Of a stretch of DNA of 13,792 nucleotides, positions 842-13,792 are shown one piece after another (the stretch's first letter is position 1; each line of letters starts with the position of its first letter). This DNA comes from a virus. A program made the translations under genes and the position numbers. The notes beneath the pieces were generated by a model, which was not told the origin of the DNA, did no database searches, and worked only from the letters and a program-made list of their open reading frames with translations. The stretch lies in UHGV virus genome UHGV-1763989, one strand, 5' to 3'.

Positions 842-1459
842 TCACAGATCTCCCATCGCTTTAACCAGTGCGTCGTAGTGTTTGTCAAACGCGGTTAACT
901 GGACGTTCGTTAGTTTGTATTTGGCTTTAAACAATTCACGCTCAACAAGCGCGTATAACTCCTGATTACTGGCGTCTGACAGGTGAGCAAGCATGAGTTG
1001 TTTTTCAGCCAGGTATGTTACAGCAAACTTCGGATCGTGTCGGACAATTGAAGAGGTGTTATCCAGCAGATCACACAGTTTTATAGTTTTCACCACAGGT
1101 TCAGCCCGTGATAAATGGTCGATATCCCGTGCTTTACGCTTAACACGGTTGCCGTGGTGTGGACGACTCACATCAGTAAGCTGATCAACATAACGTGCCA
1201 CAGTCTCACCGAACTGCGAACACACATCACCCACGGTCACGGGCGTATCTTCAACGACGTCATGCAGCCAGGCAGCGGTAACCATATCCGGCGTACCACC
1301 ATAGCGTTTAACCAGTTCAGCAACGTTCCGGCAGTGGTTCACATATGGGTCGTTGGTGTACTTACGAAGTTGATCACCGTGTGCTGCTGTTGCGAATTGT
1401 TCAGGTGTCATCATAGTTTTTGATAGTGGTGAAAAACCAAGTTGAAGTTTAGTGCTCAT
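842..1459 (-). CDS. HD-domain phosphohydrolase, RelA/SpoT (Mesh1/small alarmone hydrolase)-like
   Basis: Motifs AAHGDQ ... DPYVNHCRNVA ... AAWLHDVVEDT ... FGETVARYV match the SpoT/RelA hydrolase HD signature. Track start 1465 is TTG; first ATG is 1459, 2 nt after upstream stop, AAAAGGG upstream. Confidence 0.8.
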   Translation of the reverse strand: MSTKLQLGFSPLSKTMMTPEQFATAAHGDQLRKYTNDPYVNHCRNVAELVKRYGGTPDMVTAAWLHDVVEDTPVTVGDVCSQFGETVARYVDQLTDVSRPHHGNRVKRKARDIDHLSRAEPVVKTIKLCDLLDNTSSIVRHDPKFAVTYLAEKQLMLAHLSDASNQELYALVERELFKAKYKLTNVQLTAFDKHYDALVKAMGDL

Positions 1460-3088: not shown

Positions 3089-3277
3089 CTAGTCTCCTTT
3101 AGTGCGCAGGTGGTTTTTCCAGCGGTTTTGCGCCGCGCTGGGCTTTTTGCAAAAACCACAATCCATCATCCCGTAATATTTTATTAACCCCATTCGTCGG
3201 TTGCTGAGTCTCACCCACTGCCAGACGCCGGGACCGTTTCTACGAACTAACAGAATCTTTGCTTTACGGTTTTTCAT
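3089..3277 (-). CDS. Small basic protein (62 aa), hypothetical
   Basis: ATG start; 4-nt overlap with ParB-like gene stop; Arg/Lys-rich. Confidence 0.5.
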   Translation of the reverse strand: MKNRKAKILLVRRNGPGVWQWVRLSNRRMGLIKYYGMMDCGFCKKPSAAQNRWKNHLRTKGD

Positions 3278-4041
3278 AACCGGTGCTCCTTCAGTGCTTT
3301 TAACGCTTCAAACTGTTCAGCAGTAAGTTCAACCAGGACTTTACCACCTTCCTGGCGGGTTGCAGACCATTCACCACGGATTGCTTCCACTGCAGACCGT
3401 ACCAGTTTAGCGGGTGGACGACGCGTGACTACAGGTTCTTTATCACCTGCTTTAAACTGGCGAATGGCTGCTGATGCGCTGATTTCACCATTCTGGATCC
3501 GGCGTTTAAGTTCCAGCGGCATATCAAGAATATTCAGTTGTTCGTAAACGTGCTGAACGGTTTTACCGACCTGTGTAGCGATCTGCTCAACACTCATGCC
3601 ATATGAACGGAAACGACCGTAAATAACAGCACGTTCAACAGGGGACCACGGTTTACCTTCATTACCTTTTAACAGTGTCAGGGTCTGTTGTAGTTCGTCA
3701 CCGGACGATTCAACAACATCTACTGTCAGAATCGGCGTCCCGGCTTCAATAGCTGCCAATACGCCACGTAAACGATGCTCACCATCCTGGACATACGGAA
3801 CACCGTCAACAACCTGTACCACGATGGGTGGAACGAAATCGCCGTTGGTATAAGCCTGACGAAAGTTTTCAATGTGTGCCAGTGCTGCTTCAGTTTCCCA
3901 GTAGTTGTCGGTAAACACACCGCGTGGGTTATGTCCTGGACGAATCTTGATAATACGCGGATCAATGCGATATGCGTTACCACGTTTTACGTTGGTTTTA
4001 TCGGTATCAGACAGCTTGCGAAGGGAGTTAATGTTAGCCAT
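3274..4041 (-). CDS. ParB-like N-terminal domain protein with HTH
   Basis: ParB-box-like IRPGHNPRG and VQDGEHRLRG (cf. GERRxRA), followed by HTH-like MSVEQIATQVGKTVQHVYEQL. ATG at 4041; own promoter upstream. Confidence 0.8.
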   Translation of the reverse strand: MANINSLRKLSDTDKTNVKRGNAYRIDPRIIKIRPGHNPRGVFTDNYWETEAALAHIENFRQAYTNGDFVPPIVVQVVDGVPYVQDGEHRLRGVLAAIEAGTPILTVDVVESSGDELQQTLTLLKGNEGKPWSPVERAVIYGRFRSYGMSVEQIATQVGKTVQHVYEQLNILDMPLELKRRIQNGEISASAAIRQFKAGDKEPVVTRRPPAKLVRSAVEAIRGEWSATRQEGGKVLVELTAEQFEALKALKEHRL

Positions 4042-4047
4042 TTGTGT

Positions 4048-4076
4048 TTAGCCTCATGTGTGTTAACTGAGGCTAA
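4048..4076. promoter_or_regulatory. Perfect 9-bp inverted repeat (TTAGCCTCA-N11-TGAGGCTAA), candidate operator
   Basis: Arms 4048-4056 and 4068-4076 are exact reverse complements; lies between the predicted -10 and the ParB-like start codon and covers its GAGG ribosome-binding site. Confidence 0.5.
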
Positions 4077-4115
4077 TTATCGGGGAGGTTTGGTAATCTG
4101 TCAAGAATTATTTTA
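4076..4115 (-). promoter_or_regulatory. Sigma70-like promoter with A/T-rich upstream element (internal promoter for ParB-like gene)
   Basis: Minus strand AAAATAATTCTTGACAGATTAC: -35 TTGACA (4104..4099), 17-nt spacer, -10 GATAAT (4081..4076). The 22-nt element is identical to the copy at 11014-11035. Confidence 0.6.
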
Positions 4116-4508
4116 AGGATATGGAACCCACACAGTTAAACCAGCTTTCAACATGCGACGATGCATATCAGCAGTACCACGCCCACCGGGGAACACAACA
4201 CCGTATGTAGGACGTGGCTCACCCTCTAACATCGCCTGATTACGTTGATGACCTGCAACAGCGTTATAAGCCCCGTGCTTACCCTGTTTTACAACCGCAC
4301 CAGGTACAGTCAGATCGTCCCACGCTGCCGGGCAACTACGCACAGGAATACCGTGTAATTGCGCCCATTGCTTACACAGGTTATCAACACCTGACGCACC
4401 ACCTTCAATTAGTTCGGTAACCGGAAATTGTTTGTGAAGTAGTCCTAACGCGGAAAACACTGCTGTTCTGTCGTTAAAGTCACGACCACCTGTGACGACA
4501 ATTATCAT
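4113..4508 (-). CDS. DUF2493-like protein (SLOG/LOG-like Rossmann fold)
   Basis: IIVVTGGRDF ... EGGASGVDNL ... GIPV ... VVFPGGRGTADM matches the DUF2493/SLOG pattern (GGR near N-terminus, PGGxGT near C-terminus). ATG start; ATGA overlap with next gene. Confidence 0.75.
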   Translation of the reverse strand: MIIVVTGGRDFNDRTAVFSALGLLHKQFPVTELIEGGASGVDNLCKQWAQLHGIPVRSCPAAWDDLTVPGAVVKQGKHGAYNAVAGHQRNQAMLEGEPRPTYGVVFPGGRGTADMHRRMLKAGLTVWVPYP

Positions 4509-5185
4509 TGTTTATTAGCCTCAAATACAGCGCGAGCAAAACCACGCGGGGTTAATGAACGTAACTGTTTAGTTGTTTCAGACTTACCACCCAGATATTT
4601 CCAGCCCCAGAAGAAACCAATATTAATCGGTCCAGGACGTTTTTCAGGCATTCTGAAACCGTTACCGAACCACAGACATGTTTTCTTCGTGTATCCGTCA
4701 AACATCGGCATTTTAGGGTGAAAAGGTTTATCATCTGTTGTCATATAACCGCCATATTCCCACGGATGAAAATAAGCGTCAGGTGTCCCCATCATTTCAG
4801 GACGTGATAAAGCACCGACAGGGTTTTCGACCATCCAGGGTACATCATAACGTTCTCCAAGTTCCCGGATTAGTTTTGCGTTTGCCAGTGCATACTGTAG
4901 TTCAGCGTCATCCCGGTCATGTTGTGAACCGCTTTGAGCAAACAGGGTGCAATCCGGGAAACCAAAAATAATCGACGGTAAAGGTGTTCCCAGTATTTCC
5001 TGCTTAATTGCAAATTGTGGGTCAATCCACTGATTAACGTAATGAAGATTGGGGTGATCAGCTTTAATAAAATATTCCCCGTGATTAGCGGAATCAGCAT
5101 TAAAACAATAAACCTGATAACCATGTATCGCCCACGGTAAACCCATAATCCCGGAACCGTCGAACAATGACCAGACAATTTTCAT
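4505..5185 (-). CDS. DNA (cytosine-5)-methyltransferase-like protein, atypical and short (226 aa)
   Basis: SLFDGSG (motif I-like, res 6-12), FGFPDCTLFAQSG (motif IV-like, PDCT in place of PCQ, res 77-80), MVENPVG (motif VI-like ENV, res 120-122); spacing parallels M.HhaI-type enzymes, but no obvious target-recognition domain. Confidence 0.65.
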   Translation of the reverse strand: MKIVWSLFDGSGIMGLPWAIHGYQVYCFNADSANHGEYFIKADHPNLHYVNQWIDPQFAIKQEILGTPLPSIIFGFPDCTLFAQSGSQHDRDDAELQYALANAKLIRELGERYDVPWMVENPVGALSRPEMMGTPDAYFHPWEYGGYMTTDDKPFHPKMPMFDGYTKKTCLWFGNGFRMPEKRPGPINIGFFWGWKYLGGKSETTKQLRSLTPRGFARAVFEANKQ

Positions 5186-5397
5186 CCTTCTGTCTCCTCG
5201 ACGATCCTCGTGATTTTAACCGGCGCGATTGTTACTTTTCTGCAATTGAAACCTTGATCACGAAGTGCTTTAAGTGCAACACCAGCCATGTAAGTTGAAC
5301 TGAACAGAGTAGCTTCACTGATATCAACCCAGGTAATCCGGGTATCAATATGTGCATAACGGTCTTCTTTTTTGATTACAGCACCGAATTCAGTCAT
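5182..5397 (-). CDS. Hypothetical protein (71 aa)
   Basis: ATG start; 4-nt overlap with downstream gene; no motif recognised. Confidence 0.5.
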   Translation of the reverse strand: MTEFGAVIKKEDRYAHIDTRITWVDISEATLFSSTYMAGVALKALRDQGFNCRKVTIAPVKITRIVEETEG

Positions 5398-5587
5398 GAT
5401 CGTTTTTCACTCCCCACATGCAAGCACCAATTGATGCAGCAGCCGCTAATAATCCAAGACCCGCCAGAAACCACCACGGTGTTTCCGCATGATTACCACG
5501 GGTCATTAGTCCGACAATACAAGACGCGAGTGTTACGGATACAAGAAATACAATAACAGTAATTAAACGGTCAAATATGTTTTTCAT
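5390..5587 (-). CDS. Small membrane protein (65 aa, two predicted TM segments)
   Basis: Track ORF starts at a GTG (5632); internal ATG at 5587 has AAGGAG 7 nt upstream. MKNIFDRLITVIVFLVSVTLASCIVGLM ... WWFLAGLGLLAAAASIGACMWGV is strongly hydrophobic. Confidence 0.6.
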   Translation of the reverse strand: MKNIFDRLITVIVFLVSVTLASCIVGLMTRGNHAETPWWFLAGLGLLAAAASIGACMWGVKNDHD

Positions 5588-5618
5588 AACAATCACTCCT
5601 TGTTCACTTGATGTACAG

Positions 5619-5660
5619 ACTATAGCGCACACATCTGTAATTCGTCAAGAATTATTTTAC
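5619..5660 (-). promoter_or_regulatory. Sigma70-like promoter with A/T-rich upstream element (drives small membrane protein gene)
   Basis: Minus strand AAAATAATTCTTGACGAATTAC: -35 TTGACG (5648..5643), 18-nt spacer, -10 TATAGT (5624..5619); in the 90-bp gap after the primase gene. Confidence 0.6.
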
Positions 5661-5677
5661 ACATCCTTGTGCAATGA

Positions 5678-8032
5678 CTAACTATTACTCGCAGGTGGAA
5701 AAGGCACTACATTAGCTGTTGACTGAAAAGGGAGAAGACGAATACCCCTGAAACCGTTTAGTCGAACGTTATTTATATTAACAACGTCTTTTTTCACTTT
5801 ACCACGAAGGGTGGATTTAAACGCCCGACTAAATGCAGTTTTAGTCATTGCTGGACCACCTTCCTGTGTTTTCCAGAGACGATAACGACCATAGAGTTCT
5901 TCAGTGTGCACCTCACCATCAGATACCAATTCGCAACAATCTCTGATAAAACTTCTAAGTGGTGATTGTTGATCCATAATTTCCTGACGTTCTTCCAGAC
6001 TTGCTTTTGGTTCAGTAAACCGTCCGTTTGCACGTAACCGTTGTAAACCTTCAATCGCCCAGTTACAGATCCCCGGTAGTTCTTTCATCAGTCGTGCTTC
6101 CAGAGTGGTATCTTCACGACCCAGGAACGAAATGTTGAACGGCAGGATCAGCAAACGGTTAGCCATTGCACCGGAATCATCAGCAAATGCAGGTATGTTG
6201 TTAGCAGCCAGTGTCATACGTCCAGGTAAACGACCGTTCCATGCACCTTTATACTTACGATTAACCGGAATCGCATCACAACCTGTAATAGATTTGAAAC
6301 GGTCCAGAATTCGGTTGCGGTCAGGCCCGGACACACTGTGAGCATCACCAATAAACAGCACAGATTTATCCAGCACAGTTTCAAGTACCGCATCACTGGC
6401 TAAACCCTCCAGTGTGATCCCTGCATACGCTTCATCACCTACCAGTGCCTGAATGATGCGACCAATCGTACCTTTACCGGAACGTGGCGCACCAATCAAC
6501 AACATCGCTTTCTGATAGTCGTACGAGTTGACAAGCATGTAACCCAACCATTCCTGCAACAGTGCAATACGTTCCTGATCACCTTCCAGAGTTGTATTAA
6601 GAAACTGTTCAAATGCTGGCGCACGGGCAAACGGATCGTAGCTATACGGTAAAATACTGGTCGTAAAGAAATCAGGGTTATGTGCATCACATTTACCCGT
6701 GTGTACATCCAGTATCCCGTTCTGACAAACAATATAGTGTGATACATCAACGCCGGGCCATGTTCCAAGCTCACGATCAGCGCGTGTGAATAAATACGAC
6801 AAAACCTTGTACGTACCGTTAATTACGTCAGCTTTTGGTTCGCTGGCGAGCATTGCCATAGATATCTGATGTTTCAGTTCATCTTCACTCACACGTTCCC
6901 ACACGCGACCGTTGAACCGGTACGGCTGTTGCTGGACAAAAATCAATGTGTTGTTTGGATAATAGTTATTAACGAACGTGGATGCGTTAACCGTATGGTT
7001 TGAACCATATGCACCTTCACCGGGTTTCACACTCATGTACGCAGGTGTTCCACCATTAGGAACGACGGTAGGCGCTGGTGTGACTGCTTTCATCAGTTCT
7101 GGTGTCATTGTCGGTTGACTACGATACACAGTATCACAACGTTCCACAGCGCCCAAAATCGTGTTTTCACGGTAATCCTGACGATCTGTCCATTTACCAC
7201 GAACCAGCCCAGAACGGTTAAACAAACGTTCAATACGTTCGCAATCTTTCCCTGTCCAGAACGCAAGGTGTGAGCACAGGGCAGCATCAGCGGCAGATGC
7301 ATTGTAGTCTTTTCCCTGGTCGCTGGGGTATGACACAGACAGGCGTTCAACGTTTGCATTCCACAGATCTGCAAATGACGCTTTATTACCAAATACTGAA
7401 GCAGCACTGGACGAATTTAACGCCATTTTAATCAGTTCATCATCGTCTGCCGGACCTGACCAGTCATCACAGGGTGCTGTTGTCCAGCGTGCGGAACGGT
7501 CTGAACGGATACGACCATACCGGGCAATAGAATCATGAATGCCCTGGGTATAATCAATATCAACATCGCCATTACCCGTGAGCGTCATCGCGACGAAACG
7601 ATCACGCCAGTACATTTCCAGCCCGGTTTTCTGGTCGTTCAGACTGTTAAAACCTTCCGGTATGCTGGTATAAGCACAGATGATATGCAAACCTGTTCCT
7701 GACTGGCTGACTTCAGTGTAAGCATTTGGAAAACGGTTTACGAATTCATGCGCCAGTGGTGACCATGTGGCTGTTGCCTGATCTACCAGACAGTTATCGA
7801 CATCAATAAAGAAATAAGGGTCATTTTCTGTGAATACAAAACCAACACCAGACATGCCGTACATTTGCGCCATACCTAACGCGGTGTGATAGTCAGACCA
7901 GTCGTTAGGGTTAGTGGTACTGGCTTTATAACCGTGTACCGGGCTGTATGGTACTTTCGTTGGTTTTGGACGATCGGCAACTGTCTCAAGTCGCCACATG
8001 ACCCACTGTTTACGGTTCAGTAACCCTTTCAT
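5678..8032 (-). CDS. DNA primase-polymerase / D5-type SF3 helicase fusion (784 aa)
   Basis: N-terminus has primase-polymerase-like features (KVPYSPVHGYKAST ... GVGFVF ... FFIDVDNC); C-terminus has Walker A GAPRSGKGT and Walker B-like VLFIGDA. ATG at 8032. Confidence 0.85.
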   Translation of the reverse strand: MKGLLNRKQWVMWRLETVADRPKPTKVPYSPVHGYKASTTNPNDWSDYHTALGMAQMYGMSGVGFVFTENDPYFFIDVDNCLVDQATATWSPLAHEFVNRFPNAYTEVSQSGTGLHIICAYTSIPEGFNSLNDQKTGLEMYWRDRFVAMTLTGNGDVDIDYTQGIHDSIARYGRIRSDRSARWTTAPCDDWSGPADDDELIKMALNSSSAASVFGNKASFADLWNANVERLSVSYPSDQGKDYNASAADAALCSHLAFWTGKDCERIERLFNRSGLVRGKWTDRQDYRENTILGAVERCDTVYRSQPTMTPELMKAVTPAPTVVPNGGTPAYMSVKPGEGAYGSNHTVNASTFVNNYYPNNTLIFVQQQPYRFNGRVWERVSEDELKHQISMAMLASEPKADVINGTYKVLSYLFTRADRELGTWPGVDVSHYIVCQNGILDVHTGKCDAHNPDFFTTSILPYSYDPFARAPAFEQFLNTTLEGDQERIALLQEWLGYMLVNSYDYQKAMLLIGAPRSGKGTIGRIIQALVGDEAYAGITLEGLASDAVLETVLDKSVLFIGDAHSVSGPDRNRILDRFKSITGCDAIPVNRKYKGAWNGRLPGRMTLAANNIPAFADDSGAMANRLLILPFNISFLGREDTTLEARLMKELPGICNWAIEGLQRLRANGRFTEPKASLEERQEIMDQQSPLRSFIRDCCELVSDGEVHTEELYGRYRLWKTQEGGPAMTKTAFSRAFKSTLRGKVKKDVVNINNVRLNGFRGIRLLPFQSTANVVPFPPASNS

Positions 8033-8035
8033 AAT

Positions 8036-8209
8036 TTACGCTCCGAACTGACGTTCAGCAGCCATCAGTTTGACCAGGTTGATAGCAGATCGCCCGGTAA
8101 GCAGATTACGTTTAACATGAATTTCAGTAACGTTCAGACGTTTAGCAACAGCCTCAATACCGTGGTTATCAATCAGTTTTTGCAGACGTTTAATGCGTTC
8201 AGTATTCAT
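8036..8209 (-). CDS. Unlisted small ORF (57 aa), putative HTH-like DNA-binding protein
   Basis: Hand-translated: ATG 8209..8207 overlaps upstream stop (ATGA), own stop 3 nt before primase ATG; MNTERIKRLQKLIDNHGIEAVAKRLNVTEIHVKRNLLTGRSAINLVKLMAAERQFGA. Confidence 0.5.
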   Translation of the reverse strand: MNTERIKRLQKLIDNHGIEAVAKRLNVTEIHVKRNLLTGRSAINLVKLMAAERQFGA

Positions 8210-8697
8210 TGTTTAATCCATTTTTCAAATTGTGAAGGATGAGTGATGAAACGAAATTCACCACCTGCGTTTTCAACAATCGCACCGAAAGTGGCCTGTG
8301 CTTGTGCACGTCTGTCACTCGGGGTCATGTGCCAGTCAGGGCGTTTCATTTCGGCAGCAATAAAGACACCCACTTTCGAACCGATCATATCCGGTGTAAC
8401 GATTTTGGTTTTAATGCCGATGTAGTCGCTTGACTTCATAACAGCGTTGATTTTCGCACTGGTGTTACCAAGACCATAACGAACCATCATTCCTTTTTCG
8501 TTTTTCAGAGCACCTGAGTTATTACGCCAGATACGTTGCCCTGCGCGTGCCGCAATCAGTTCACACTCTTTACTGGTGGCGCTTTCACTTACACCGTCTT
8601 CGTGTGGTGTTCCATCAGGCTGATAAAGCGCGTATAACTCGTACAACGCCATCTGACTAATACCGTGACGAATCGCCCATTGTTCAAGCGTTGTCAT
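8206..8697 (-). CDS. PD-(D/E)xK nuclease, VRR-NUC-like
   Basis: WRNNSGAL ... SDYIGI ... GVFIAAEMKRP fits a D...ExK arrangement seen in VRR-NUC-type phage nucleases. ATG start; ATGA overlap with exonuclease stop. Confidence 0.65.
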   Translation of the reverse strand: MTTLEQWAIRHGISQMALYELYALYQPDGTPHEDGVSESATSKECELIAARAGQRIWRNNSGALKNEKGMMVRYGLGNTSAKINAVMKSSDYIGIKTKIVTPDMIGSKVGVFIAAEMKRPDWHMTPSDRRAQAQATFGAIVENAGGEFRFITHPSQFEKWIKQ

Positions 8698-9200
8698 AAT
8701 GTTTTAGTCCCACTAGTAAGATATTTAATCTGGTGTAAACAGTCGTCTAACGCATTGTGGTAAGTACCGTCACGGGTAAATTCTTTCGGGTTAATACCCA
8801 GCAAATCAACAGCGGTACGAACATCACGGACGTTCCAGAACTTCCACGGGCAACGAACACCAATCGCATTAAACCATGCTTCCAGAATAGTGATATCGAA
8901 TGTGGAACCATTGCCCCACGGTTTAGCATCGTGCCAGATGAATTTGGCAAAATCTTTAGCAACCTGAACAGGATCGGCAGTACCACCAAAAGCATCTTTT
9001 TGTGCTTGTTCTGACTGCTGCGACCACCACTTCATAGTGTCAGGGTCTGTGTGACCGTAAGCGAGCGCATTAAAACCCATTGATGCGTAAAACGTTTCAC
9101 CAATGTTACCCTGACGATCAAAGTAAACAGCGCCAATTGACAGCACTGCACAACCTGGTTTAGTACCACACGTCTCAATGTCAACCATCAAATCACGCAT
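8694..9200 (-). CDS. DnaQ-like (DEDD) 3'-5' exonuclease
   Basis: Exo I motif MVDIETCG near N-terminus and Exo III-like YHNALDDC near C-terminus; ATG start with AAGGA upstream. Confidence 0.8.
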   Translation of the reverse strand: MRDLMVDIETCGTKPGCAVLSIGAVYFDRQGNIGETFYASMGFNALAYGHTDPDTMKWWSQQSEQAQKDAFGGTADPVQVAKDFAKFIWHDAKPWGNGSTFDITILEAWFNAIGVRCPWKFWNVRDVRTAVDLLGINPKEFTRDGTYHNALDDCLHQIKYLTSGTKTL

Positions 9201-9214
9201 TACAGTTCCTTACG

Positions 9215-9241
9215 TTTAAAATATTTCTATGCAGATTACCA
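9215..9241 (+). promoter_or_regulatory. Degenerate copy of the repeated promoter element, opposite orientation (function unclear)
   Basis: AAAATATTTCTATGCAGATTACC matches AAAATAATTCTTGACAGATTAC at about 18 of 22 positions but has TATGCA in place of TTGACA and no convincing -10; sits in the 41-bp gap between helicase and exonuclease genes. Confidence 0.3.
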
Positions 9242-10909
9242 TCAGATTAATGAACTTGCAACCCTTGCGGCGAGTTCATTAGCTTCACGAGTACGTAACC
9301 CCTGAGCGCTAAGTACATCAACACCAAACACCCTGTAAAACATCTTGTAAGCGTCATCAACGGGTATACCTTTATCACGCTGAATACCCGCCCATGTGGT
9401 GATCATACTGCGTAATTTACGCTGTGCATCGTTCATTGCCTGAATGTTTTTCATTGCACTGTAAGCTGCAATAGGGGGTGCACCAGCGTTTAACATTTGT
9501 TCTTTTACTGCAACAGGGTCACGGTCGATTATCACCACTGCCCGGCGTAATTCTTCCAATTCTTCAGGTGTCAGTTCACGTAAATTACCTTCTACACGAT
9601 CCGGGCCTGAGCGTTCGGCTTTTTCAGGAATATGACCACAATACGGGCAGCACGGAAGACCAGACGGATAAGGCTTCAGACACGGTGGAATACCATTATC
9701 AGGATCACCCTTGTTTGTACATGTTGTATTACTGTTCCCACTGCTGTTAGATGAACGACGATCACGGTCATCTAAAGACCAGTTGTAGTGCTGATCGGGA
9801 AGTGGAAAACCACGGGCCAGAAATCGACGAACATTACCGACTTTATCAATAATCAGTGCTTTTTTACCGGGTTTGAAACGCAATGGTCGACCCATCTGTT
9901 GTACAAACAAAGAGTAAGATTCTGTTGGACGGTCCATTACAGCGCATTCCATCGCCGGGCAATCGTACCCTTCACCGAATAAATCGTTGTTACATAGCAC
10001 GAGTGTTTTACGTCGTTCAAAACGTTCCAGAATATCCGCTCGTTCCTGATTGCTGTTTCGTGAGCTGATCGCCTCTGCAGGAATGCCAGCATCGCGAAAT
10101 TCTTTTGCGAGTGCTTCAGCAGAATCTACGTCACACGTAAACACAACAGTGAGTAAACCGTCTGCGTACGTTTTCCACGTACTGACGGTATCACCAACGA
10201 TGTTTGAATCTTCCATCGCTTTTTTTAACGCAGAGGGTTTGTAATCACCCGTAGTATGGGAAATCATTTCTGCAGTTAATTCCAGGTCTGTTTCAGCCAT
10301 GATCAGGCGATAATCAGCCAGGTGTTGTTGGCTGATTAACTCACGCATTGATGGACCGATGATCATCTGATCTGCGTAACCTGACGCATGACGACCCAAG
10401 CCTTTACCGTCAGCACGGATCGGTGTAGCTGTAACACCCAGACCTTTAGCGTTAGGGAATTTTTCCCGGCAGTCTCCCCACTGTGTGCCACGTACCAGGT
10501 GATGCGCTTCATCGCTGAATACAAGAGACACGTCGTTGTACCATCGTTCGTACTGTTTTGTTCTTAACGTTTGTGAACTGGTAATAACGATGTCAGCGCC
10601 GGGGGAATAGGTACTGTAACCAAGCGTTTTCATCTGCTGATTAGTTGCAAACTTAACAGTATCTTTTTGCGCTATAAATCTGTGTGGTAATCCCTGGCGA
10701 GCAACAGCCATTGCGATTTGACTAACCAGTTCTTTACGGTGTGCCTGGATGACTTTTACACCGTCGGATTTTACCAGTTCTGCAAGCGCTCGGGTCTTTC
10801 CTGCACCCGTGGGAAGTACAAGAATCACGTCATCAGCACCGTTCGACCATGCCTGGCGCACGTTGTTAACGGCATCTTGTTGATAGTGACGAAGTGGTTG
10901 TTGACTCAC
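9242..10909 (-). CDS. SF2 DEAH-box helicase with C-terminal Cys-rich extension (555 aa)
   Basis: LRHYQ, Walker A VLPTGAGKT, Walker B FSDEAHH, motif III TATP, motif VI QQMGRPLR; C-terminal CLKPYPSGLPCCPYCGH cluster. GTG start at 10909 with AAGGAAAG upstream, no in-frame ATG nearby. Confidence 0.85.
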   Translation of the reverse strand: MSQQPLRHYQQDAVNNVRQAWSNGADDVILVLPTGAGKTRALAELVKSDGVKVIQAHRKELVSQIAMAVARQGLPHRFIAQKDTVKFATNQQMKTLGYSTYSPGADIVITSSQTLRTKQYERWYNDVSLVFSDEAHHLVRGTQWGDCREKFPNAKGLGVTATPIRADGKGLGRHASGYADQMIIGPSMRELISQQHLADYRLIMAETDLELTAEMISHTTGDYKPSALKKAMEDSNIVGDTVSTWKTYADGLLTVVFTCDVDSAEALAKEFRDAGIPAEAISSRNSNQERADILERFERRKTLVLCNNDLFGEGYDCPAMECAVMDRPTESYSLFVQQMGRPLRFKPGKKALIIDKVGNVRRFLARGFPLPDQHYNWSLDDRDRRSSNSSGNSNTTCTNKGDPDNGIPPCLKPYPSGLPCCPYCGHIPEKAERSGPDRVEGNLRELTPEELEELRRAVVIIDRDPVAVKEQMLNAGAPPIAAYSAMKNIQAMNDAQRKLRSMITTWAGIQRDKGIPVDDAYKMFYRVFGVDVLSAQGLRTREANELAARVASSLI

Positions 10910-10950
10910 GTATCTTTCCTTCAGTTAATATCGAATCGTGAAAAAAGTTT

Positions 10951-10990
10951 AAAATAGTTCTTGACGTATTGCAACTTATTCCTCTAACAT
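10951..10990 (+). promoter_or_regulatory. Sigma70-like promoter (upstream member of a tandem pair for the rightward genes)
   Basis: AAAATAGTTCTTGACG: -35 TTGACG 10961-10966, 18-nt spacer, -10-like TAACAT 10985-10990. Confidence 0.5.
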
Positions 10991-11013
10991 CTGCATCAAC
11001 GAAAGGCGAGTGT

Positions 11014-11053
11014 AAAAATAATTCTTGACAGATTACACAACACCTTTTAAAGT
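11014..11053 (+). promoter_or_regulatory. Sigma70-like promoter with A/T-rich upstream element (rightward genes)
   Basis: AAAAATAATTCTTGACAGATTAC: -35 TTGACA 11025-11030, 17-nt spacer, -10-like TAAAGT 11048-11053; AAGAGGA ribosome-binding site then ATG at 11086. Confidence 0.6.
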
Positions 11054-11085
11054 TAGCGATAACCAAACAACAAGAGGAAAACGTA

Positions 11086-11856
11086 ATGTTCGAAGTTAAA
11101 TTACTTGTAACTGCTCCGGGTCTGGAAACTGCGATCAACAATCTGGCAAATGCTATTGCGACTGGTGCTGCACCACTCATGACTGCTCAGGATGATGGTA
11201 TCACTAAAGAAACCGTGACAGTCGTTGCTGAATCACTGCCTGTTGTATCAGCAACAACTGAAGATATTGACGATAACGAAACCAGCACTGAAGAGTTCGA
11301 CAAATGGGGTTTGCGCCACGATCCACGTATCCACACTGACAGTAAATCCCTGAACAAAGGTGATGGTCTGTGGCGTCAAAAGAAAAAACTGGATGAAGCG
11401 TTTGTTGACGGTGTTAAACGTGAACTTATTGCTGAAGCAGTTGAAGCAGGGCGTTATACCGGACCTGCAGAACTTGCACCGGGTTATGTAGCACCTGTTG
11501 ATCCTGCTCCAGCGGTTCCTGCCGCTCCGGTAGCTCCAGTTGTACCAGCAGCACCGGCTGCACCAGTCGCGCCTGTCGAGCAACCTGTAACCACGGATCC
11601 AGCTAAAGTTTATAATACCCAGGTTCTTCAGTCAGCACTAATGCAGATGTTTGGACAAATTACGGGTGACCGTGCCGCGCCATTAAGTCAGCGAATCATG
11701 GGACTGTATGAAACTCAGAACGTGATGCAGATTGACGACCCAGTAAAACTGAAATCTATCATCGAACTGATTGAACGCATTAACGCGGCCCCGGCTGATG
11801 CTGAAAACATTGTTGGTCAGGCTGAATCTGTTAAACAAATGGGTGGGGCATTCTGA
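11086..11856 (+). CDS. Hypothetical protein with central Pro/Ala/Val-rich linker (256 aa)
   Basis: ATG with AAGAGGA upstream; two regions separated by APVDPAPAVPAAPVAPVVPAAPAAPVAPV. Function not recognised. Confidence 0.7.
   Translation: MFEVKLLVTAPGLETAINNLANAIATGAAPLMTAQDDGITKETVTVVAESLPVVSATTEDIDDNETSTEEFDKWGLRHDPRIHTDSKSLNKGDGLWRQKKKLDEAFVDGVKRELIAEAVEAGRYTGPAELAPGYVAPVDPAPAVPAAPVAPVVPAAPAAPVAPVEQPVTTDPAKVYNTQVLQSALMQMFGQITGDRAAPLSQRIMGLYETQNVMQIDDPVKLKSIIELIERINAAPADAENIVGQAESVKQMGGAF
11491..11590 (+). repeat. Imperfect tandem repeat encoding the Pro/Ala/Val linker
   Basis: Reiterated gc(a/t)cc(a/g)g(c/t)(t/a)g units (e.g. gcaccggctgcaccagtcgcgcctgtc) inside the 256-aa CDS. Confidence 0.5.
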
Positions 11857-13001
11857 TGACAAGTCACGCTACCTTTAGTGCCAGTGGATCAAAACGTTGG
11901 TTAGCTTGTCCGGGTAGCGTTCAACTGTCACAGCGGATTGATTATGTAGAACCATCATCACCCAGTGCTGAAGAAGGTACAGCCGGGCACTGGGTGTTAG
12001 AACAGAAGATTAAAGGTAAACAGCCATTAATGCCGTGTATTGCTCCTAACGGTGTTCAGGTTACTGAAGACATGCACATTTACGCGGATGACTTTATAGC
12101 AGATGTTCTTTCAGTTGGTGCGAAACTTGATCCGCTGTTTTCAGAAGTTCGCATTCACATTGACTGGTTGTTACCCGGTCAGTACGGAACCTGTGATTAT
12201 CGCTGGTATGACTTTAATACTGATACGCTTTATGTATGGGATTATAAATACGGTCATGTTGCAGTTGACGCAGTTGATAACTCACAGGGGGTCTATTATG
12301 CACTGGACCAACGTTGCATCGACACTGTTAAGCGCGTTGTGTTCACAATTGTTCAGCCACGGGCTTATCACCCACTCGGACCTGTAAGACGATGGGAGTT
12401 TAACCTGGCAACATTGATGGAATGGGCTGAACGATTTAAACACGGGTTTAACGAAGCACATAAACCAGACGCACCTTTAAATGTTGGTAGTCATTGTCAT
12501 TACTGTCCGGCGCGTGGTATGTGTCCGGCGATGTATGAGAGGGTTTTAGAATTGGCTACTGTTCTTGATGCACCACCATCACTTACGCCAGAAGAAGTAG
12601 CGCGTCGTCTGGCACTTCTTGAAGAACTGTATACGCGTTCTTCTGAAGCAAAAACAGCGTTACATACTCAGGGGTTACATTTTGTTCGTATGGGTAAAGT
12701 TTTACCGGGTTTTAAACTTGCAACAAAACAAACCCGACGTCAGCTTACGGACGAAGGAAAACTGATCGGTGCTGCACCCATGTTTGGTGTAAACCCTGAA
12801 ACATTGTACGAACGTAAATTAAAACCATTGTCAACACTGGAAAAATCACTGCCTCCGGCACTTGTTGACATGTGTACGACAAAACCAGAAGGTCAGCCAG
12901 TTTTAGTACCTGACAGTGACCCGCGTAAAGGTCACAGCACACTGGCAGAATCTGTTTTTAATAAACCCGTGACGATGCCGACTGGCGCACGTCCACTTTA
13001 A
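11856..13001 (+). CDS. DUF2800-like PD-(D/E)xK nuclease (Cas4/RecB-like, Cys cluster)
   Basis: N-terminus MTSHATFSASGSKRWLACPGS typical of DUF2800; WDYKYGH nuclease core; C-terminal CHYCPARGMCPA with an N-terminal Cys suggests an Fe-S cluster. ATG overlaps upstream stop (TGATG). Confidence 0.8.
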   Translation: MTSHATFSASGSKRWLACPGSVQLSQRIDYVEPSSPSAEEGTAGHWVLEQKIKGKQPLMPCIAPNGVQVTEDMHIYADDFIADVLSVGAKLDPLFSEVRIHIDWLLPGQYGTCDYRWYDFNTDTLYVWDYKYGHVAVDAVDNSQGVYYALDQRCIDTVKRVVFTIVQPRAYHPLGPVRRWEFNLATLMEWAERFKHGFNEAHKPDAPLNVGSHCHYCPARGMCPAMYERVLELATVLDAPPSLTPEEVARRLALLEELYTRSSEAKTALHTQGLHFVRMGKVLPGFKLATKQTRRQLTDEGKLIGAAPMFGVNPETLYERKLKPLSTLEKSLPPALVDMCTTKPEGQPVLVPDSDPRKGHSTLAESVFNKPVTMPTGARPL

Positions 13002-13454: not shown

Positions 13455-13792
13455 TGAACCAAACCTATCAAGCGGCATTAAAGTAAGACCAGATAATAGT
13501 AATACACTTGGTACTAATTTTATCGGTAATATAGGATATTTTTTAAATGCTGGAAATAATGTTGACAATAATGTTCAAAGTGTCGCTTTGTTCACATCAG
13601 CTTACGGTAATGGTCACGGTCACGGTATCAACACAGACAATTTCGACCGTGTCGTGACATTGTTCTCTGCAAGGCGTCTTGTGTCTTGTAATTGGCAAAA
13701 CTGGGCGGATGAATACATCGCGCCAAACACAAAACACGAGAAATGGAGCGAGTTTGTAGCAGACTCTGTGGTCTATTCTCTGTTTGAGAGTA
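13438..13792 (+). CDS. Partial CDS (N-terminus; continues beyond right edge), hypothetical
   Basis: ATG 13438 with AAAAAAGG upstream, overlaps DUF2815 stop by 17 nt; open frame to end of window (MLKTFDEPNLSSGIKVRPDNSNTLGTNFIGN ... RVVTLFSARRLVSCNWQNWADEYIAPN...). Asn/Gly-rich, AT-rich start; not in ORF track because no stop is reached. Confidence 0.45.
   Translation, partial: MLKTFDEPNLSSGIKVRPDNSNTLGTNFIGNIGYFLNAGNNVDNNVQSVALFTSAYGNGHGHGINTDNFDRVVTLFSARRLVSCNWQNWADEYIAPNTKHEKWSEFVADSVVYSLFES

Follow-up and report, generated by a model that had tools for sequence, protein, structure and literature searches.

Dispersed asymmetric operators, such as the C1 operators of phage P1, the stoperators of mycobacteriophage L5 and the KorB sites of RK2, have identified repressors, and their register relative to promoters varies. 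KorB, the global regulator of RK2, is itself a protein of the ParB family. In phage T4, the early "uber" promoters of the UP/-35/TGn/-10 type possess extra consensus regions, which have been interpreted as a means of out-competing the promoters of the host right after infection (PMC2988021). Furthermore, T4-type phages contain so-called PeSLs, cassettes of an early promoter and a stem-loop, for which a role as recombination homologies in module exchange has been proposed (PMC4122927). Here, we describe a short repeat in a stretch of 13,792 nucleotides from the virus genome UHGV-1763989, which as a whole is called the window in the following. According to the original prediction, made from the letters of the window alone, this repeat is a phage-specific promoter class, or a combined promoter and regulator-binding site, that defines transcription units. 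We conclude that it is probably the invariant upstream part, positions -48 to -23, of strong early promoters that form a class specific to the lineage and would be used by the sigma-70 RNA polymerase of the host.

The window belongs to a siphophage of the Nonanavirus/Sashavirus group (9NA-like). In a megablast comparison, which matched 226 records, it is 96.4% identical to Escherichia phage KarinMuster_Bas82 (Bas82 in the following) over 86% of its length, approximately 96% identical to the Salmonella phages Sasha, Sergei and Solent, 79% identical to Salmonella phage 9NA and approximately 78% identical to Klebsiella phage Carvaje and its relatives. Its orientation is the reverse complement of the replication region of Bas82. 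9NA-like phages are common enterobacterial phages, and the BASEL reference collection now includes one of them, Bas82. No study of the transcription programme of the group is known, and the 9NA genome paper calls the "molecular lifestyle" of these phages unexplored (PMC4153490).

The repeated block in the window and in related genomes

A pattern search of the window for AAAATAATTCTTGACR, on both strands and with up to two mismatches, finds exactly four sites, where 0.05 are expected by chance and none of 200 dinucleotide-preserving shuffles reaches four. Three of them are exact (4114..4099 and 5658..5643 on the minus strand, 11015-11030 on the plus strand), and the copy at 10951-10966 (+) has a single mismatch, a G for A at position 7 (AAAATAGTTCTTGACG). 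All four full copies lie between open reading frames (ORFs) and each faces the next gene, just as had been predicted; the positions given at that time were off by one or two nucleotides at three of the sites, and the mismatch of the 10951 copy had gone unmentioned. The 22-mer said to be shared by the copies at 11014 and 4115 exists as well (AAAATAATTCTTGACAGATTAC, identical at 11015-11036 and 4114..4093), and the -10 boxes proposed at a distance of 17-18 nt are recognizable as TAAAGT, GATAAT, TATAGT and TAACAT, with spacers of 17 or 18 nt. An unguided repeat search of the window recovers the same family together with a fifth, degenerate copy (approximately 9205-9241). In a scan for the sigma-70 consensus, three of the four copies are the three best sites of the whole 13.8 kb and the fourth lies above the threshold; the -35 score of all four is 5-6 out of 6. 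The four full copies, named A to D, are arranged as follows, the block being the segment from -48 to -23:

11012..11037 (+): block of copy A, with the -35 TTGACA at 11025-11030; predicted proximal tandem promoter of the rightward operon
11048..11053 (+): -10 of copy A, TAAAGT, after a 17-nt spacer; predicted start near 11059-11061
10948..10973 (+): block of copy D, with one mismatch (AAAATAGTTC) and the -35 TTGACG at 10961-10966; predicted distal tandem promoter of the rightward operon
10985..10990 (+): -10 of copy D, TAACAT, after an 18-nt spacer; predicted start near 10997
5636..5661 (-): block of copy C, with the -35 TTGACG at 5648..5643; in a 90-bp gap past the primase stop codon, facing the lipoprotein-methyltransferase-YAcAr block
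5619..5624 (-): -10 of copy C, TATAGT, after an 18-nt spacer; predicted start near 5612
4092..4117 (-): block of copy B, with the -35 TTGACA at 4104..4099; facing the ParB-like gene and the small ORFs downstream of it
4076..4081 (-): -10 of copy B, GATAAT, after a 17-nt spacer; predicted start near 4069

Copy A is followed by the Shine-Dalgarno (SD) sequence AAGAGGAA and then by the ATG at 11086, which lies 61 nt from the start of the -35. The A-tract of copy B overlaps the TAA stop codon (4115..4113) of the YAcAr gene. Copy D is found in Sasha-like genomes, and not at this place in 9NA or Carvaje.

The complete genomes of Bas82, 9NA and Carvaje were assembled from annotated records and then scanned for the block, which occurs 15-16 times in Bas82 and approximately 10-11 times each in 9NA and in Carvaje. 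Unbiased k-mer counts put the motif first among the dispersed repeats of Bas82 and Carvaje, and in 9NA it ranks second, behind only a tandem coding repeat. Annotated intergenic gaps account for 7% of the Bas82 genome and hold 13 of its 14 strongest copies; the 14th is located within the final 40 nt of a small ORF. All 14 are co-oriented with the next gene. The search of the closest complete genome thus speaks for the predicted role, since the motif is almost always intergenic, always directed downstream and not as common within genes as it is between them. The units that have a copy in front are the replication and recombination operons, the dUTPase/nucleotide-metabolism block and all blocks of small ORFs of unknown function. 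Directly upstream of the main virion-assembly and lysis operons of Bas82 there is no copy. Two plus-strand copies of Bas82 lie inside the structural region, one at 1808 before hyp2-6 and one at 13731 before hyp33, just upstream of the head genes. The 9NA genome announcement had already remarked on the unusual placement of small-ORF blocks antisense among the virion genes in this group (PMC4153490).

When the copies are aligned on the -35, the consensus comprises 26 bp, from -48 to -23, and reads TTTAAAATAATTC, followed by TTGACR and nATTRCA. The information content is 1.5-1.9 bits per position over -46 to -23, softer at -30, -29 and -25, and approximately 0 bits outside the block. Since the positions -48 to -42 and -28 to -23 were not used in picking the sites, their conservation is no artefact of site selection. 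The -35 is TTGACA or TTGACG in 31 of 35 copies, and the four exceptions deviate in a single base (TTGATG, TTGGCG) or in two (TTGAGT). After nATTRCA follow about ten variable nucleotides and then the -10, which is present as a strict TAnnnT at 16-18 nt from the -35 in 28 of the 35 copies (background: 4.6%); some of the other seven have near-matches (GATAAT, CATAAT, CATACT). The leader of approximately 25 nt is CA-rich and contains an SD site, and in most copies the start codon, with the SD before it, is found at a distance of 59-64 nt, counted from where the -35 begins. Judged by this layout, the unit is a complete cassette of promoter, leader and ribosome-binding site. The segment from -46 to -38 reads TAAAATAAT and includes an A-run at -45 to -42. 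The TAAAAT within the A-tract was considered as an alternative -10 and rejected, because no conserved -35 or TGn lies upstream of it (0 bits) and TAnnnT is strongly enriched downstream.

Eight orthologous promoter triplets from Bas82, 9NA and Carvaje were compared with regard to their mean ungapped identity:

-105 to -76: 0.44
-75 to -49: 0.48
-48 to -36: 0.94
-35 to -30: 0.97
-29 to -23: 0.83
-22 to -13: 0.52

This pattern shows that the block has been kept by purifying selection and is not the product of a recent duplication. Since the consensus is identical in three genera and the conservation is sharply bounded, selection on function is to be preferred over homogenisation within each genome. 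A metagenomic relative, whose helicase is 70% identical to that of the window, has a looser version (AATAAT-TCTTGAC-nn-ATTGCA), with approximately seven copies in 46.6 kb of reconstructed sequence. In Vibrio phage 1.023.O (MG592407), with a primase that is 40% identical, the interleaved gene architecture is kept, the promoters are plain TTGACA-17-TAtatT and the block is absent. The block is therefore a feature of the enterobacterial clade. The Vibrio phage has bidirectional cassettes, in which the TTGACA-17-TAtatT promoter faces a block of small ORFs and CCGTGATATACT, an element resembling an extended -10, lies 12-13 nt upstream on the other strand and faces structural genes; its core GTGATATAC is the most repeated 9-mer of that genome.

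The block is also specific to the lineage in larger sequence collections. A scan of IMG/VR with a 15-mer gave at least 120 loci, of which only two are 9NA-like and the others are single chance matches; the full block was found in 9NA-like contigs only. In 596 Gb of bacterial genomes, a 21-nt pattern matches 15 times, always singly and in unrelated taxa, so that there is no sign of a multi-copy regulatory site of the host. One of these bacterial matches (1141-1172, minus strand) is spacer 8 of a type I-F array of clustered regularly interspaced short palindromic repeats (CRISPR) in Yersinia pekkanenii A125KOH2 (NZ_CQAZ01000023.1). This array has at least 27 repeats of GTTCACTGCCGTACAGGCAGCTTAGAAA, and its spacer 8, TTAAAATAATTCTTGACGTATTGCACTGATGT, is the promoter block. 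In every genome the spacer agrees with many copies, at 24-25 of 25-26 positions, with at least 10 matching sites per 9NA-like genome; the other spacers of the array have no match in the 9NA-like genomes compared. The match of spacer 8 shows that a Yersinia-infecting relative carries the same block. Since the block is present in many copies and is constrained, it would be an attractive CRISPR target, and with one spacer at least ten places in the genome of such a phage can be reached.

Proposed promoter function and competing explanations

One and the same cassette seems to stand before essentially every non-structural, presumably early, unit in the genera Nonanavirus, Sashavirus and Carvajevirus. 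We propose that after injection of the DNA the RNA polymerase holoenzyme of the host would bind with sigma region 4 at TTGACR and with sigma region 2 at TAnnnT, and that the C-terminal domain of alpha would contact the A/T tract at the position of the proximal UP subsite. The result would be strong transcription without the need of any phage protein. In the window, the tandem copies D (10951) and A (11015) would drive the rightward recombination/replication operon, copy C (5658) the lipoprotein-methyltransferase-YAcAr block and copy B (4114) the ParB-like block. The annotations of Bas82, 9NA and Carvaje list no gene for an RNA polymerase or a sigma factor, and none was detected among the proteins scanned. 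If the interpretation is right, the motif allows the early transcription units to be mapped almost completely with no data other than sequence. It would then also account for the expression of the many small antisense gene blocks within the structural module and provide a promoter cassette that is compact, very strong and portable.

Several points weigh against this interpretation. ATTRCA (-28 to -23) is conserved as strongly as the -35 itself, and we know of no base-specific contact of RNA polymerase that explains it. The proximal UP subsite reportedly has the consensus AAAAAARNR at -46 to -38, as given by Estrem et al. in 1998 and 1999, and the block agrees with it at only about six of nine positions; the region of the distal subsite (-49 to -60) holds no information at all. 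Two copies that have lost their promoter elements nevertheless retain the two flanks of the block, a pattern that would not be expected of a site serving as a promoter only. Finally, a search of the literature gave no transcription start or expression data for 9NA-like phages. A promoter on the reverse strand was also considered as a general cause of the conservation of ATTRCA and was rejected, as the opposite-strand TTGCAA is found in a minority of copies only and is consistent just at the helicase promoter described below.

The two promoter-less loci are recovered, together with the promoters, by a scan that ignores the central five bases of the block. One of them is the degenerate copy of the window, which the original prediction had missed:

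9215..9240 (+): copy E, TTTAAAATATTTC TATGC AGATTACC, antisense in the 41-bp gap between the helicase and exonuclease genes

Copy E retains the two flanks of the block and has neither an intact -35 core nor a -10; its orthologues in 9NA, Carvaje and several metagenomic contigs have the centre TAAAC. The second locus lies outside the window, between the DNA polymerase gene and the next gene, and has the centre TATAC. This copy is identical at 43 of 44 positions between Bas82 and 9NA, and the adjoining coding sequence differs at 6 of 22 positions. At both loci the TTG that sigma would contact is lost. Such copies fit a second reader of the flanks, for instance a phage regulator that times the early promoters, and a role at the RNA level equally well; the latter is conceivable because in the sense mRNA either site is closely followed by an SD. 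The copies may also be decaying slowly, given that copy E is related to copy B as an inverted paralogue (37 nt, 78% identical).

It is possible, though on balance we do not expect it, that the block is a composite of promoter and operator and is also bound by a sequence-specific protein, most likely a global regulator of the phage that times all early promoters. This would add to the sigma-70 explanation and not exclude it. The ParB-like protein with its helix-turn-helix (HTH) or one of the small early proteins might be the reader, and a shut-off of this kind would let rightward late transcription pass the leftward early blocks in the structural module. Such a protein would account for the near invariance of ATTRCA, for which no need on the part of the polymerase is known and which is kept even in the 70%-identity relative and in the Yersinia spacer, and for the two loci where the flanks outlived the TTG. 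A weak dyad, TAATTC-N5-GRATTA, is centred on the -35, and the ParB-like protein aligns to Spo0J and Noc over its N-terminal domain and HTH; it is the sole recognizable DNA-binding fold among 20 ORFs of the window and 20 conserved small proteins of Bas82, the latter showing no HTH or other DNA-binding domain in Pfam. However, the block stands in a fixed register with -35 and -10 in every copy, as expected if it is the polymerase that reads it, and the dyad is short, A/T-rich and broken by the most conserved positions (C-24, A-23 and TTTAAA at -48 to -43). ParB-family sites are normally palindromic, a recurrent parS-like palindrome is absent from these genomes, and TAGTGCA iterons upstream of the small terminase gene provide an alternative ParB target. 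The promoter-less copies, in turn, are perhaps kept for a reason at the RNA level, and copy E is clearly a degenerate paralogue of copy B. None of the sites of the host factors Fis, IHF, CRP/FNR, TyrR, CytR, RcsB and DnaA is known to resemble the block convincingly.

A fully specified form of this idea is doubtful. It holds that a sigma-70 core is fused in fixed register to the recognition site of a global phage regulator, for which the ParB-family HTH protein whose gene follows copy B is a candidate, and that the binding of this regulator to about 15 early promoters and to the two promoter-less copies in the replication operons would switch the early programme off or remodel it. If true, the antisense early blocks would be cleared from the path of late transcription, a virulent siphophage would have a genome-wide temporal switch based on one motif, and a phage ParB might have a new, transcriptional role. 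The iterons just mentioned are located in Bas82 in a 494-bp gap upstream of the small terminase gene (53032-53525), which contains at least eight of the TAGTGCA type and an AT-rich segment of approximately 100 bp that is duplicated at 13557-13660. The iterons and this segment might represent a pac site or an origin, or be bound by ParB.

It is unlikely that the blocks are mainly a recombination linker or mobile regulatory cassette, that is, 26-bp homologies for the swap, inversion, insertion and deletion of modules, with a uniformity that stems in part from this traffic. Where the window is compared with 9NA or Carvaje, the homology does end exactly where copy B (4114) and copy A (11015) have their upstream edges. 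No part of the genome varies more than the gene blocks behind the copies, and the phages encode their own pair of exonuclease and annealing protein. Spacer sequences such as CAAGGAYGTG recur within paralogous subfamilies, copy E is an inverted relative of copy B, and a half-copy abuts copy C:

5659..5681 (-): half-copy ATTGCACAAGGATGTGTAAA, directly upstream of copy C

This half-copy shares 20 nt with the spacer and the -10 of a paralogous promoter at 54806 of Bas82 and is also found in 9NA. It has no -35 of its own, and the 3' end and stop codon of the primase gene are found there instead, so that it looks like the scar of a recombination between promoter copies. Within 12 nt of a block lie 1-3 of the 42-58 endpoints of high-scoring segment pairs, compared with 0.3-0.7 expected; the enrichment is small and the expectation is that of a uniform placement over the genome, not of one restricted to intergenic regions. 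Moreover, the one consensus in three genera and its sharp bounds favour selection on function, and the stem-loop that defines PeSLs is present at only three of 35 copies and at none in the window.

Very unlikely, to our mind, is a promoter for a phage-specified or phage-modified polymerase, i.e. a middle class that needs an activator or a sigma-appropriation factor and in which ATTRCA would correspond to a MotA box. The conserved element just downstream of the -35 lies roughly where T4 middle promoters carry their phage-specific box (PMC2988021), and many proteins of these phages have no assigned function. However, T4 middle promoters replace the -35, whereas a near-perfect TTGACR is kept here in every active copy, and there is no recognizable sigma or polymerase gene. 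The same block also stands before nearly every non-structural unit, with the helicase-primase operon as the main exception, and therefore no obvious immediate-early class is left that could make an activator. That the repeat is a chance or low-complexity similarity or a recent duplication devoid of function can practically be dismissed: its upstream half is A/T-rich, but no shuffled window contains four sites, each genome of the three genera has 10-16 copies of the 26-mer although the flanks have diverged, and the 21-nt pattern is as rare in bacteria as its 15 single matches in 596 Gb indicate.

Gene blocks of the window and the helicase-primase operon

The genes of the window between and beyond the copies form four blocks, and a further promoter candidate lies inside copy D on the other strand:

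10909..5678 (-): helicase-primase operon, tightly packed, with a superfamily 2 (SF2) helicase, an Rv2179c-like exonuclease, an endonuclease-like protein, a 57-amino-acid ORF and a D5/NrS-1-type primase
leftward: lipoprotein block, with a 65-amino-acid lipoprotein (ATG at 5587), a 71-amino-acid ORF, a DNA methyltransferase (4505..5185) and a YAcAr/SLOG protein (4113..4508)
leftward: ParB-like block, with the ParB-like gene (4041..3274) and then small ORFs
rightward (+): rightward operon, with a 256-amino-acid protein (11086-11856), a DUF2800/PD-(D/E)XK exonuclease (11856-13001) and an annealing protein (from 13017)
10946..10974 (-): candidate leftward promoter, with TTGCAA at 10974..10969, a 17-nt spacer and TAAACT at 10951..10946

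According to the original prediction, the copies define the transcription units of the window, including separate helicase and primase blocks. This agrees with the rightward genes (copies D and A), the lipoprotein block (copy C) and the ParB-like block (copy B). It does not agree with the helicase and primase blocks, since no copy faces either of them and 10909..5678 is one leftward operon. In the same way, a phage-specific promoter class with conservation beyond the -35 stands up as a genome-wide family whose block is kept across three genera with diverged flanks, and the assignment of helicase and primase to it has to be given up.

Instead, the helicase-primase operon appears to be served by the weaker reverse promoter embedded in copy D. 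Seven nucleotides downstream of its -10 there is an A, which gives a predicted start near 10939, and the start codon of the helicase is at 10909. The same layout, as TTGCAA-17-TATGAT, is found in 9NA and Carvaje. With 8 of 12 positions agreeing with the consensus, the candidate lies under the threshold of the scanner. If the reverse promoter is real, it and copy D could never be occupied together, because they overlap back to back. In the 70%-identity relative, the helicase gene is preceded by an ordinary forward copy of the block.

The position of the cassette also helps to correct a gene start. The program-made ORF at 5390-5632 (-) has 80 amino acids and a GTG start, and the 65-amino-acid version from the ATG at 5587 matches phrog_22517 (lipoprotein) over its full length (65/65). 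Because of this match and the fixed distance from promoter to ATG, the longer version is probably too long and the ATG at 5587 the real start. Rfam has no RNA family match anywhere in the window.

In comparison with Bas82, the window shows several mosaic junctions. Bas82 has an extra gene of 76 amino acids between the leader of the 4114 promoter and the start of the ParB-like gene (window 4034-4041), and approximately 680 bp of extra genes directly after the leader of the 5658 promoter (window 5582-5587). At 4512-5169, where the window has the methyltransferase, a different gene is present in Bas82. Two of these junctions fall at the leader/ATG boundary of a promoter cassette.

A second conserved element, (T/C)GTACAGAAC(A/T)(G/A)TTA, is partly palindromic and lies 25-45 nt upstream of the early block, facing the opposite way. 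It is found at 21675 and 58477 in Bas82, at 4038 and 24457 in 9NA and at 4298 and 24040 in Carvaje, where in each case it precedes the large terminase and the tail-chaperone operons. As no other late operon has it, it does not qualify as a general late promoter. TGTACAGAAC was likewise considered as a general late promoter and rejected, since it precedes only two late operons.

Comparison with known systems

The P1 C1, L5 and KorB sites resemble the block in that 10-20 copies are scattered over the genome, many of them on promoters and a few inside operons. They differ from it in that the block has a fixed register, belongs to a virulent phage and occurs at only two loci without a promoter.

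With the UP element of rrnB P1 and related promoters the block has in common an A/T tract that adjoins the -35 on its upstream side, including a run of A at -45 to -42, where the proximal subsite lies. Unlike that element, only the proximal part is conserved here, in a sequence far more fixed than the degenerate UP consensus calls for, and binding of alpha is putative.

The likeness to PeSLs extends to several points of context, as near-identical early promoters stand before variable blocks of small ORFs, some homology breakpoints may be associated with them, and degraded or partial copies exist (PMC4122927). In contrast, a hairpin with a T-run within 90 nt upstream is found at three of 35 copies and at none of the four in the window. 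Furthermore, the consensus of PeSLs is located in the -35 and -10 hexamers, and that of the 9NA-like block in the segment from -48 to -23. Membership among the PeSLs was therefore rejected: a repeated early promoter next to variable small ORFs is present, but since 32 of the 35 copies, and each of the four in the window, lack the stem-loop, the composite that gives PeSLs their name is not.

The early promoters of T4, as also those of T5 and the A1-A3 promoters of T7, share with the present class the many copies, the elements of host sigma-70 promoters and the A-rich upstream tract. The differences to T4 are that a TGn-extended -10 is missing, that the -10 is a minimal TAnnnT, and that the information lies upstream (-48 to -23) and includes a conserved segment of the spacer. 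The consensus is unrelated to that of T4, and 9NA-like phages are siphoviruses with early blocks antisense among the late genes. A search of the literature on 9NA, Sashavirus and Carvaje and for the motif string gave no description of these promoters, and the 9NA genome announcement is silent on promoters. The class is thus apparently undescribed, and it would represent a new example of a familiar kind, namely the extended-consensus early promoters of virulent phages.

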